Source: Mobula hypostoma
Taxonomy: Eukaryota
NCBI RefSeq assembly: GCF_963921235.1
Contig: NC_086108.1
Span: 19,158,001 to 19,222,000 of the forward strand
Reading direction: 5' to 3'
Length of the DNA stretch: 64,000 nucleotides
Shown here piece by piece: positions 19,968 to 47,903 of the stretch; positions within the stretch are counted from its first letter, which is position 1, and every line of letters starts with the position of its first letter. A program made the position numbers and the translations under genes. Under the pieces are notes generated by a model that had not been told where the DNA came from, made no database searches, and saw only the letters and a program-made list of their open reading frames with translations.

Positions 19968-20185
19968 CAAAAGAGACTGCAAGTACTAGAATCTAGAGCA
20001 ACACGCAAAGCACTGGAGAAATTCAGTAGGTCAGGCAGCATCTATGTAGGGAAATAAACAGTCAATATTTCAGGTCAAGACACTTCTTCTGGACTGAGGA
20101 TATCCAGATGAAGGGTCTCAGCCTGAAATGTCAACTGCCCTTTCTCTCCTGACCCACTGAGTTCATCCAGTACTTTTTGTGTTAC
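19968..20185. mobile_element. Older Penelope-like inverted pLTR pair
   Basis: The left arm (...cagtcaatatttcaggtcaagacacttcttctggactg) and right arm (ccagatgaagggtctcagcctgaaatgtcaactg...) are diverged inverted copies. Confidence 0.7.
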
Positions 20186-41924: not shown

Positions 41925-42830
41925 TAGGGATAGGTTTCCCCTTGATCCTTTGCATCCAACATATCATTCTCTGCAAATTTTGCAATCTCCAACAGGATCC
42001 CATCATGGGACTCATCTCCCCCCCCCACCCCCCCCCCGCAACTCTCTGCTCACTGCTGACATCACTCTTTCCGTGGTTCCCTTGTCCACTCCTCCCTCCC
42101 TGCTAATCCAGGTGAGGCAGTCTTTCACATGTGAATCAACCATTACACCTGGTGCTCCCAGTGAGGTCCATTACAGAGTGGGGATTGCTTCATCAAGCAC
42201 CTTCACTTCATCCTCTGGAACAGCCAGGAAACCCTGGTGGCCAGCCATTTTAATTCCACTTCCCATACCATCACCAAGATGTCTGTCTATGGCCTCTACT
42301 ACTGCTAAATTGAGGCTAGACACAGATTAGAGGATTAGCCCCTCTTATTGGTAGTCAATAAACTGATGGCATGAACATTGATTTTTCAAACTCCTGTCTA
42401 CAACTCCCTTCTGTATCTTTCCCTCCATCTTTTGTTTACCTTTATCCTAGCGGTCCCCATCACCTCTTCTTTTTCCCCTCCCCTCTTCTTTTTCCCCTCC
42501 CATATCCTCTCAATCAGTCCATCGCCCACACTTTCATCCCTCTGGTTTCCCTCCTTATGTCCTTCATTATTTTATTCCACGATCCACTATCATCTCCTTT
42601 CAGATTCCATTTTCTTCACCCCTTTCTATCTTCCATATATCACCTCAAAGCTTCTTACCTTGCCCACTATCACTCCCTTCACCTATCATCTTGCTCCATC
42701 CCTTCCCTCCACCTTTTTATGGTGGCTATCCCCCCTGTTTCTTTCAGTTCCAATGAATGGTCTCAACCCAAAATATCAACTGTCCATTTCCCTCCATAGA
42801 CACTGCATGACTCACTGAGTTCCTCATCCA
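41925..42830 (+). mobile_element. Penelope-like element 3' part: decayed GIY-YIG endonuclease region, pyrimidine-rich UTR, pLTR
   Basis: Manual translation gives DRFPL.., IQHIILCKFCNLQQDP, QVRQSFTCES and VGDCFIKHL...VASHFNSTSH...MSVYGL. It ends with a degenerate version of the 43338 motif (cagttccaatgaatggtctcaacccaaaatatcaactg). Confidence 0.78.
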
Positions 42831-43112
42831 GGATTTCCACAGAGCTCTCCTAATCACTTGTTGTAACTTCAGTAGACATTGGGAGATATAGCAAGAAGTT
42901 TTTGCAAACTCCAAGCAATATCAGATGTAAATCCTATTTTCATCTATCCTTCCCTGGCTGCCACCCAGGACAGACAACTACAGCCATGTGCACTGATGGA
43001 CATTGATGAAAAACTGCACAGTCCTCAAGCTGTGACATTGGTGAATACACCAGCTTAGATTGAAAGGGACGGAATGGGGTATTTCTTTTCAAAGGCAAGT
43101 CAATCATATTTA

Positions 43113-43467
43113 AGTTGCTGGTGAACGCAGCAGGCCAGGCAGCATCTGTAGGAAGAGGTGCAGTCGATGTTTCAGGCCGAGACCCTTCGTCAGGACTCTG
43201 CCTCTCGCCGCTTCTCCCGTCAAGCTCTGAAGGCGACTCTCTCCACCATGAGGAGGTACTTGGTGTCCCTATCCCAGACCCTTCCACACCTTCAGGACAC
43301 TTACTTCGCCGTCTGTAATGGTCAAATTTCTTCAGTTAGTCCTGACGAAGGGTCTCGGCCTGAAACGTCGACTGCACCTCTTCCTACAGATGCTGCCTGG
43401 CCTGCTGCGTTCACCAGCAACTTTGATGTGTGTTGCTTGAAGTTCCAGCATCTGCAGAATTCCTGTT
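43113..43467. mobile_element. Young Penelope-derived unit with 86-bp inverted arms and 14-bp flanking direct repeat
   Basis: Arms 43112-43197 and 43338-43423 differ by one mismatch. gtcaatcatattta occurs at 43099-43112 and 43468-43481. Confidence 0.88.
43338..43373 (+). ncRNA. Minimal type I hammerhead-ribozyme motif (PLE-associated)
   Basis: AGTC-CTGACGA-A-GGGT CTCG GCCT-GAAA-CG-TC-GACT: helix I AGTC/GACT, CUGANGA and GAAA core boxes, a helix II hairpin and a GUC cleavage triplet ending at 43369. Confidence 0.65.
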
Positions 43468-44334
43468 GTCAATCATATTTATTTTGTAATACAAACACTT
43501 GAAAGGATCTTTAAAAAACTCAAATTAACAGATAAAAGGCCACAAAAAATGTGGGTGTACAGGAACATAAAAGAGGTAGTTTTGTTGACGTATCTATTAC
43601 CTGTGGTAATTTTGCAGATATTTGGTTAGGAACTAAAGAAATAACTAAAAATCACATGCCATTAGAGAAGCTAAGGAACAGAAGAAGCCCTTCCACATAG
43701 TCCCACTATCACTTCAAATTTAATCCACCAGCCTGTATGTCCTAATACATTTCACTATTTCTTTGAGTTAACTTCACTCAACTTCACTTGACCCATCACT
43801 GAAATGTTCCTACAACGTATGGTCTCACTTTCAAGGACTCTTCATCTCATGTTCTCAATATTTATTGCTTATTTATTTATTATTATTTCTTTCTTTTTGT
43901 ATTTGCACAGTTTGTTGTCTTTTGCACACTGTTTGAACACCCAAGTTGGTGCAGTCTTTCATTGATCCTATTATGGTTATTATTCTATTAAGGATTTATT
44001 GAGCATGCCGGCAAAAAAAATGAATCTCGGAGTTATCTATGGTAACATATATGTACAATACTTTGATAATAAATTTACTTTGAACTTTGATGAACAATCC
44101 TCTCTCAACAAAGCTTATCACCTGTAATTCTTCTCCCCCACACCATCTGCGGTTGTCACTGTGCACGTGAGGCAGTATTCCATTTTTTACCTATTGTGCT
44201 ATGTGCAGTGCCCAGCATGTTATGAAGCATCTGCTCTTTTGTAGTTGTCTCTGGTTCCATCCTCCACAAAATGTGACCAAATCAATGTGTTTAAGTCTGA
44301 TCTCAACCTACACTACACTACACTACATTAGAAA

Positions 44335-44935
44335 AGAGCATCCATCCACCCTTTTGAATCACAGCTTCACTTTCAGGAATCAACAAGCTTCAAATCCTGG
44401 GCCTCTGTACCTCTCTCTGCAACTGGATCCTTGACTTTCTCACCTGGAGACCACAGTCTATGTGGATTGGAAATAACATCTCCTCCTCACTGACAATCAA
44501 CTCAAGGATGCGTGCTTAGCCCACTGCTCTACTCTCTCTACACACACAACTATGGCTAGGCACAGCTCAAATGGCAACTATAAATTCACTGATGACAAGG
44601 CTGAATCTCAGGTAATGACAAGGAGACTTACAAGACTGAGATAGATCAGTTGGTTAAGTGGTGTTGCAACAACAAATTTGCACTTGCCCTCAAGGAGCTG
44701 ATTGTGGACTTCAGAAAGGGGTTTGTCAGCAGAACACACATCAGTCCTCATCAAGGGGTCAGCACTGAAAAGGGTGAGCAGCCTCAAATCTCTGGGTATC
44801 ATCATCTCTGAGGGTCTATCCTAGGTCCAACATATTGATGTAATCACAAGGAAGGCATGACAACAGCTCTATTTCATTGGGAGTTTGAGGAGACTTGATG
44901 TGTCACCAATGACTGTAGCATAACTACATAGTCAG
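44335..44935 (+). mobile_element. Rex1-type LINE RT fragment
   Basis: ctctgcaactggatccttgacttt (LCNWILDF), caaggatgcgtgcttagcccactgctctac ([10 protein letters not shown]), aaggagctgattgtggacttcag. Confidence 0.8.
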
Positions 44936-45589
44936 GTAGCTTCTGACGAGGACATCTCCTGACAAGAACAGCAAGGTTTGGGAGAGGTCTGGGCCAAACT
45001 CCAGGCAGTATCAGAATTCTATCTGTTCCTGTTTGCTTCCTAGTAAAGGTGCTGATGTTCCTCCAACTCTTGTTGAAATCGCGGACAAAGGGAGTGTAGT
45101 TAAAATTGCATTATTGCACATTTTTTATTCTGAAGAACCTACACAAAACTTCATGGGGAATACATATAGGAGAAAGGTCAGGGCAAGGAAATTAAGAACT
45201 GCGGATAAGGTGACCTGTTGTAGGAAGGGAAGGAGCTTGTGTGGAGCAGAGAACATTTGGATTGAATGGCCGATGGAAGGCCCCACTATACACTTACTTT
45301 GTTTTTTTTTGTTTTGTTAAGCTTCTGTCTACAGGGGATGTAGCCAGGGAGGCAATGAGGAATGCAAGCTGGTGGTGCTGGATGCGGTTAGTAGCATCCT
45401 TTATGTGGAGATGGATTAGCTCTCACTGTGGTGTGATGCCTGGTTTGGGCTGCAGATACTTCCAGTTTCATACCAGAACAAACTACATTCTGTGACTACA
45501 TTTTGAGTGAGTTCCAGAGGCAAAGTTGTCTTTGGTGCAAGTGTCAAAGGGGAATTGTGAGCCAGCAGTCATGATTACAGGCTTTGGTG

Positions 45590-47716: not shown

Positions 47717-47903
47717 TTTTCGTAGTCATGCTTGCAGTAAAGCTTCTTGTCTCTGTAGTAGCAAGTGGTGGCAAGGGGCTCCCTGCACCCAGCACATTGC
47801 ACACACTGCTCATGCCAGAAGCTGTCATTCACCCGCAGAAGAAACCGGTCTAGGATCACCCTATCACAGCCCTCGCAGACTGCCCTCTCCTTTCCACTGG
47901 GCC
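47717..47903 (-). CDS. LMX1A: LMX1A-like second coding exon, LIM domain 1: (G)[61 protein letters not shown](K)
   Basis: Manual translation of the reverse complement gives the complete LIM zinc-ligand pattern C-x2-C...H-x2-C-x2-C-x2-C...C-x2-D. Acceptor is ctgtcttttctctccAG and donor is AA|GTAAGT. The 187-nt length and phases 1/2 are as I recall for vertebrate LMX1 genes. [11 protein letters not shown] and RDKKLYCK are LMX1A-type rather than LMX1B-type (ESSWHEECLQC). Confidence 0.93.

Follow-up and report, generated by a model that had tools for sequence, protein, structure and literature searches.

The window analyzed here, a stretch of 64,000 nucleotides, contains at 43099..43481 two inverted arms with opposed hammerhead ribozyme motifs inside an intron, which raises the question whether this is a small mobile unit in its own right, an insertion with a role in the host pre-mRNA or the trace of a larger element. 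A preliminary description, made from the letters alone, had favored a recent, non-autonomous, Penelope-derived unit. The feature is real, and it is a one-off fold-back stub of a very common Penelope-type element. Its value lies in the record that it keeps of how Penelope-like elements (PLEs) insert.

Anatomy of the insertion unit and its parent element

The dimensions given in the preliminary description are accurate: the inverted arms (43112-43197 and 43338-43423) match as reverse complements at all but one of 86 positions, the mismatch being at 43168, they enclose a spacer of 140 bp (43198-43337), and the 14-bp direct repeat GTCAATCATATTTA on either side is perfect. On the plus strand, the right arm reads AGTC-CTGACGA-AGGGTCTCGGCCT-GAAA-CGTC-GACT, and the left arm is identical on the minus strand except for CATC in place of CGTC. 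The right side extends 46 bp past the mirror, a part that we call the tail, and the TSD overlaps in sequence with the element by 2 nt on the right and by 1 nt on the left. When mapped to a natural full-length copy of the parent element (L100), with the hammerhead cut counted as position zero, the unit proved to be a patchwork of three parent pieces, namely a piece of an inverted pLTR, 130 bp of the ORF and a tailed pLTR (Table 1), in which the spacer is not neutral filler but parent ORF sequence. The inverted parent sequence in arm A, together with arm C running to +100, bears out the Penelope origin and the inverted pLTR that had been proposed. Arm A and piece B have four bases (GACT) in common as microhomology at their join, and the join between the ORF piece and the pLTR may sit up to 3 nt further right. 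The outward-facing end is tailless and of the short-start type in arm A and of the long-start type in arm C; the TGTTGYTTG-type repeats of the tail are the places where insertions of the family end, according to the end positions of the sampled insertions.

Table 1. Features of the insertion unit and the neighboring host exon (positions in the window; parent positions relative to the hammerhead cut).
Feature	Position	Strand	Remarks
TSD, left copy, 14 bp	43099..43112	+	exact repeat; single at the empty site, runs X23, X24
Arm A, inverted pLTR piece, parent -31..+54	43112..43197	-	94% to L100
Minimal hammerhead motif, gene-sense, CATC for CGTC	43162..43197	-	CpG transition at 43168
Piece B, parent ORF, sense, +391..+520, codons about 85-127	43194..43323	+	126/130 identical to L100
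Three filler bases, jump from ORF piece to pLTR	43324..43326	+	no parent match
Arm C, pLTR end with tail, sense, parent -42..+100	43327..43469	+	136/143 identical to L100
Minimal type I hammerhead motif, intact ACGT, antisense to the host gene	43338..43373	+	predicted cut after 43369
One-sided tail	43424..43469	+	two TGTTGYTTG-type repeats, from +62 and +95
TSD, right copy, 14 bp	43468..43481	+	exact repeat; empty site
Host LIM-domain exon, upstream of the unit-bearing intron	47717..47903	-	PF00412, E=1.4e-16

As query for the parent, we used the sequence that precedes the spacer in a related locus; it gave 40 matches (97-100%). The parent is an autonomous Penelope-like element with a unit length of 3,515 bp, RT and GIY-YIG domains and a Neptune-type linker. 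An open frame of 1,018-1,043 codons was present in seven of the 20 longer copies fetched; the full-length copies with open frame are L093 (G000:C2:157228500-157238400), L099, L100, L103, L105, L106 and L111. Under the curated cut-offs of Pfam, the 1,043-codon frame of L100 matched RVT_1 (E=5.4e-5) as well as GIY-YIG (E=0.0025), and 1,432 of 8,000 scored proteins were relatives at E<=1e-20, the best of which, 73% identical, comes from a shark; by this best relative, the host was judged to be a cartilaginous fish. The apparent start of the ORF, at +139, lies downstream of the tail. In a partial-tandem layout, hammerhead motifs lie about 3.5 kb apart around the ORF, with three in a row in L093, whose three tandem pLTRs are identical at all compared sites, indicating that the family was active very recently. 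All features expected of EN+ Penelope-like insertions were found: an ORF with RT and GIY-YIG, the partial tandem, an inverted 5'-truncated copy, a one-sided tail and a TSD. The linker before GIY-YIG, CKRNKCYTC, fits CX4CXXC as well as CX2-5CxxC, the RT-EN linker motif that marks Neptune and Nematis and is absent in Penelope/Poseidon (PMC8557442; this and all other papers identified by PMC number or DOI are cited from excerpts). Judged by its sequence, the parent carries the Neptune/Nematis mark, a motif that leaves the two unseparated. To the left of the unit lie parts of an older, diverged Penelope-like 3' fragment (41955-42005, 42237-42392 and about 42500-42830; 71-80% to L100), and at 20024-20138, a degraded pair of opposed pieces from the pLTR of an older family may be the remains of an old fold-back.

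Insertion site and host intron

In each of two related organisms (X23 and X24), one contig continues from 43098 to 43468 without the sequence in between, and the flank, about 530 bp, differs at 33 and 21 bases, respectively. Because the empty site is contiguous there, 369 bp were inserted after the split from both lines and the repeat is a true TSD, as had been assumed; with swapped flanks as control for chance, a repeat of at least 9 bp occurred in 0 of 120 trials. The young age suggested earlier agrees with this absence from two relatives and with the 97-99% identity of family copies over the right arm. Of the proposed location in an LMX1A intron, the intron stood: the unit is flanked by two minus-strand LIM exons, and the intron extends over about 247 kb from the exon listed in Table 1 to the next LIM exon. 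By its peptide sequences, the host gene is probably LMX1A or similar to it; the best PDB matches were Lhx3 and Lhx4.

Hammerhead motifs

Both arms contain the minimal type I hammerhead motifs recognized before, with the core boxes CUGANGA, GAAA and NUH and helices I and II. An Rfam scan of 42000-45000 returned no hammerhead family at E<=10. Among 15 aligned motifs, 98% of the cells in helix II and 81% in helix I were paired. Instead of G10.1-C11.1, a G-U pair closes helix II in both arms, and a count by eye over the first 100 genome matches gave 70 with U and 28 with C at position 11.1. The palindromic positions 15.2-16.2, expected for cleavage as a dimer, read ACGT in arm C and are lost in arm A (ACAT). 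In helices I and II, three two-sided changes were seen, each in a single degraded copy, and covariation was weak, with a score of 0.244 that was as high in 3 of 500 shuffles, the sequences being related to each other. The motif from -31 to +5 is common to other PLE families, whose flanks differ, a pattern that would fit selection on the ribozyme in active elements. Arm C alone folded no better than shuffled sequences (z=0.38), and its predicted minimum-energy fold is not a hammerhead. Such motifs were reported to show no cleavage as monomers and low cleavage as dimers (PMC4209133), and cleavage by the hammerhead of an anole PLE was observed only together with the protein and was dispensable for insertion in vitro (PMC11167929).

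Fold-back insertions of the family

The 33-base hammerhead pattern had 46,852 exact matches in the genome, a looser hammerhead core 106,042 matches versus 3 for a control, and a 19-base family motif 117,759 exact matches. The surroundings of the first 100 hammerhead matches and of 98 of the first 100 tail matches on contig C1 were sampled, so that, apart from one intron, the analysis of insertions covers the initial 5.2 Mb of a single contig. This sample contained 133 insertions, 66 fold-backs and 67 simple ones. A TSD of at least 9 bp surrounded 56 of the 59 complete fold-backs (13-15 bp in 48 of these) and 32 of the 62 complete simple insertions, so some simple insertions were resolved otherwise or have decayed. 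The TSDs of the sampled insertions were 69% AT; a preference for TCAA as target, seen in the first BLAST-ranked loci, vanished in the unbiased sample, leaving TSDs that are merely AT-rich. Opposed neighbors within 2.5 kb, evaluated around the first 100 hammerhead matches, had their tails outward in 12 of 13 cases and the other polarity in one. In 264 kb around the unit, seven fold-backs including this one were present, and the six others lie in the same 247-kb intron. Extrapolation from the 5.2 Mb gave roughly 5,600 fold-backs with an exact motif on both arms, and we estimate that such stubs number tens of thousands genome-wide, which makes the locus itself an ordinary one. Two short insertions, L173 (C1:170386) and L132 (C1:2960764), have a common upstream flank and a 5' junction at +9 and probably were duplicated together with host DNA or lie in another repeat.

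The outward ends fell into two groups, both in the TGTTGYTTG repeat and 33 nt apart: after correction for the TSD, 45 of 56 long ends were at +99..+106 and 38 of 56 short ends at +63..+69, with a few near +20 or +55. Simple insertions were long in 32 and short in 35 cases. Every fold-back with two tail-region ends combined a long with a short one (57/57; P=7e-18 at 50:50), and the same was true for seven of seven in the separate 264-kb stretch, which brings the count to 64 of 64 scorable fold-backs; two with one end outside the tail region (L054 and L149) and seven cut by the fetched stretch were left unscored. The unit, with its ends at +100 and +54, follows this combination too. In four fold-backs (L044, L124, L157 and L169), one end was very short (+17..+24), which may reflect trimming of the short arm or a minor third start site.

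Among 58 fold-backs, the short-tail arm reached further 5' in 30, the long-tail arm in 17, and 11 were tied; because either may reach further, neither arm is copied from the other. Within fold-backs, the arms differed at 44 of 431 non-CpG diagnostic sites, compared with about 39% in shuffled pairs and with a background of 132 in 5,841 (2.3%), which is below the rate of the arm pairs. Differences were found at 11 of 78 sites in long-armed and 7 of 143 in short-armed pairs (same five sites; P=0.02), eight of 16 long-armed pairs carried different common subfamily alleles, and the tandem pLTRs of full-length copies differed at 6 of 285 diagnostic sites. These sequence differences suggest that some insertion events use two RNAs, with later gene conversion as the alternative. 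Three long-armed fold-backs (L122, L164 and L192) have 5' ends only 6-16 nt apart far inside the element and arms that differ at 2-5 diagnostic sites, and fit neither a model of two-ended priming nor one of self-copying.

Positions of the 5' ends were evaluated in 96 tail-anchored arms from the first 3.33 Mb. They concentrate at -27..-36, with 17 ends in 623 arm-positions versus 38 in 6,176 (P=5e-6); in the unit, the 5' ends are at -31 (arm A) and about -40 (arm C). The stop site coincides with helix I and with the sequences TCAGTT and TTAGTC, which resemble initiator motifs. In the simplest reading, the 5' stop represents a transcription start with run-off; stalling of the polymerase is the rival. 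Template ends at the hammerhead cut were rejected as explanation, with 2 ends at +2..0 versus 1.6 expected in the 96 arms. Genome-wide nested counts dropped by 7.7% from +8 to +3, by 7.3% across the cut (+3 to -3) and by 11.0% from -3 to -8, so there is no strong peak of 5' ends at the cut, and a contribution of a few percent is possible. The stretch before helix I (L100:1312-1336; 43327-43341 in the window) reads like a pyrimidine tract with CAG and TAG at its end, similar to a 3' splice site, and the end of an intron of Drosophila Penelope has been placed at helix I (PMC4209133). The junction sequences revealed neither a shared upstream exon nor a spliced junction before the stop at -29..-35.

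Discussion

We consider it probable, at roughly 70%, that the unit is a dead-end insertion of three fragments that was laid down by two-ended target-primed reverse transcription; the anatomy and the counts are observed, and the steps are inferred from the insertion ends. The GIY-YIG nuclease of the element would make a staggered double cut of 13-15 nt, and both 3' ends of the target would serve as primers for cDNA synthesis on element RNA, starting at about +101 (far site) for one end and at about +64 (near site) for the other. In the unit, the near cDNA would have stopped at -31, the usual stop at the front edge of the hammerhead and probably the 5' end of the RNA. Synthesis of the far cDNA would have continued to about -40 and then, after a jump to position +520 of the ORF, over another 130 nt, both cDNAs would have been joined through the common bases GACT, and the hammerhead motifs would be passengers. 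A staggered cut leaves two 3' overhangs, and priming from both yields an antisense left and a sense right arm with outward tails, thereby predicting the polarity seen in 12 of 13 opposed neighbors. If each end uses a different start site, every fold-back will be long plus short, and single survivors will be divided half and half, and the sampled insertions agree with both expectations. In vitro, the protein of an anole PLE, a predicted dimer, cuts and extends both strands and starts at two adjacent internal sites that bound the tail (PMC11167929). Against the model, the excerpts of this paper report no start-site difference between the strands; pairing within an event lay outside its tests. 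New here is the pairing of long and short ends in 64 of 64 scorable fold-backs, which suggests that both ends of the target are used as primers, at two sites of the RNA; the literature searched, to which older Penelope papers did not belong, contained no statement on a paired use of both start sites. We lean slightly towards a general rule, by which PLE integration would be obligate, asymmetric and two-ended, with a protein dimer that holds both target ends and always primes one at the near and the other at the far of two UGUUGYUUG repeats 33 nt apart, sometimes on two RNAs, and with short stubs resulting mostly from run-off at the RNA 5' end at helix I. If true, this single rule would account for the inversion of the pLTRs, for the tail on one side only and for the length of the TSD.

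Inverted arms could also be formed when a cDNA or an antisense RNA folds back and is copied to a hairpin, of which an asymmetric nuclease cut leaves one tail. Self-copying of this kind has been proposed as self-priming on antisense RNA (PMC3846280) and with nuclease resolution of an intermediate (PMC8557442), and it would agree with the short-armed fold-backs, which mostly share alleles, and with the 11 of 58 fold-backs in which both 5' ends lie within 5 nt. However, the tailed arm reached further in 17 fold-backs and less far in 30, so that the tail has no fixed relation to the fold, and the differences between long arms (11/78 sites and 8/16 pairs with different alleles, against a background of 2.3%) would not result from self-copying unless later gene conversion is common. 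As the anole protein additionally extends both target ends in vitro without antisense RNA (PMC11167929), we regard a self-copied hairpin as unlikely. Two independent insertions back to back at one site would account for arms that sometimes derive from different subfamily alleles and might be expected in a dense family, but one TSD surrounds both arms in 56 of 59 fold-backs and long/long or short/short pairs occurred in 0 of 57; for the fold-back class, the common TSD and the end pairing refute this explanation, and the probability that it applies here is practically negligible.

The preliminary description had taken the unit for a non-autonomous one. Membership in a small family of this kind, retrozyme- or MITE-like and mobile as an entire unit, would be in line with the TSD, the small size and the hammerhead motifs, and with five other loci in which the start of the ORF is joined to the end of a pLTR (L002, L003, L005, L006 and L008). 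Each 22-mer across the two inner junctions, however, has this locus as its only match in the genome; a unique junction structure was what the preliminary description had named as refuting a mobile family. Every one of the other junctions has a different sequence, and the two hammerheads are opposed and not in direct tandem as in retrozymes. A landing hot spot for jumps from the ORF to the pLTR near +520 was not supported either, with 8 matches to a gapped pattern, three of them loci known as real joins, versus 3 and 4 at control ORF positions. We therefore regard a family of such units as extremely improbable; the unit is a single dead-end insertion that lacks an ORF and gives no indication of moving further or of serving the host. 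Three of the loci contain mini partial tandems with a period of about 560 bp (L002:1082-1776, L003:1501-2214 and L008:1078-1756), in the order hammerhead, tail, ORF start, jump, hammerhead and with an own junction in each, which are a possible birth route for retrozyme-like units. That the insertion was retained or modified because it serves the host pre-mRNA, as substrate of dsRNA editing or dicing or as masked ribozyme, and that selection disabled the sense ribozyme, seems very improbable to us. The long hairpin postulated for the minus-strand RNA is indeed predicted, with a near-perfect stem of 86 bp; only the arm A hammerhead is in sense in the host pre-mRNA, where it is predicted to be buried in this stem, and the broken motif is the gene-sense one. 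Against such a role stand the absence of the insertion in two relatives and the six other fold-backs and five intact gene-sense motifs in the same intron. The broken sense palindrome, which had been singled out as special, is ordinary CpG decay: CATC occurs in nine of the first 100 copies, exactly one palindrome is broken in nine of 31 fold-backs with two cores, and five of eight gene-sense motifs in this intron keep CGTC. As a side consequence, near-perfect hairpins may be very numerous in the introns of sharks and rays, where they could correspond to inverted Alu pairs as substrates of RNA editing.

Comparison with known systems

In twin priming of L1, the second target end primes a second cDNA, and an inversion inside one TSD with a microhomology join is the result. 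There, the arms are non-overlapping parts of the RNA, whereas here both arms copy the same stretch from two fixed starts. Opposed minimal hammerheads, inverted pLTRs and one-sided tails with TSD are already published, including dual hammerhead motifs on opposite strands, 100-700 bp apart (PMC4209133). With the minimal hammerheads of metazoan PLEs, the unit has in common CUGANGA, GAAA, the short helix I, an extra base before helix II and the palindromic remnant of helix III, but its G10.1 faces U instead of the conserved C (PMC4209133). Complex insertions of EN+ PLEs such as Pen2a_Av likewise combine a pLTR with an adjacent inverted 5'-truncated copy, tails out, with a one-sided tail of 30-40 bp and a TSD around the whole (PMC3846280; PMC8557442). 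In the excerpts of both papers, the tail is optional or often one-sided, whereas it was one-sided in 64 of 64 scorable fold-backs here. The unit is far shorter than a full copy, its TSD of 14 bp exceeds the 8-10 bp of the rotifer examples, and it differs from the EN+ PLE insertions described in the excerpts by the internal ORF piece from a template jump. Non-LTR retrozymes are also non-coding, derived from PLE pLTRs and equipped with type I hammerheads, but they consist of direct tandem units and form families, whereas the unit is inverted and single-copy (bioRxiv 10.64898/2026.07.22.740005).

The closest experimental counterpart is Poseidon PAc of the green anole (PMC11167929), in which, as in the family analyzed here, two internal RT start sites downstream of the hammerhead bound the tail, targets are AT-rich and there is no sign, in the excerpts, that the cleaved RNA is the main template. 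The family differs from PAc by the CX4CXXC linker, which is lacking in Penelope/Poseidon, by starts that lie 33 nt apart in a TGTTGYTTG repeat and by an ORF that appears to begin past the tail (+139). That start sites are strictly paired is a precise prediction, and the published in vitro system of the anole element allows a direct test of it.
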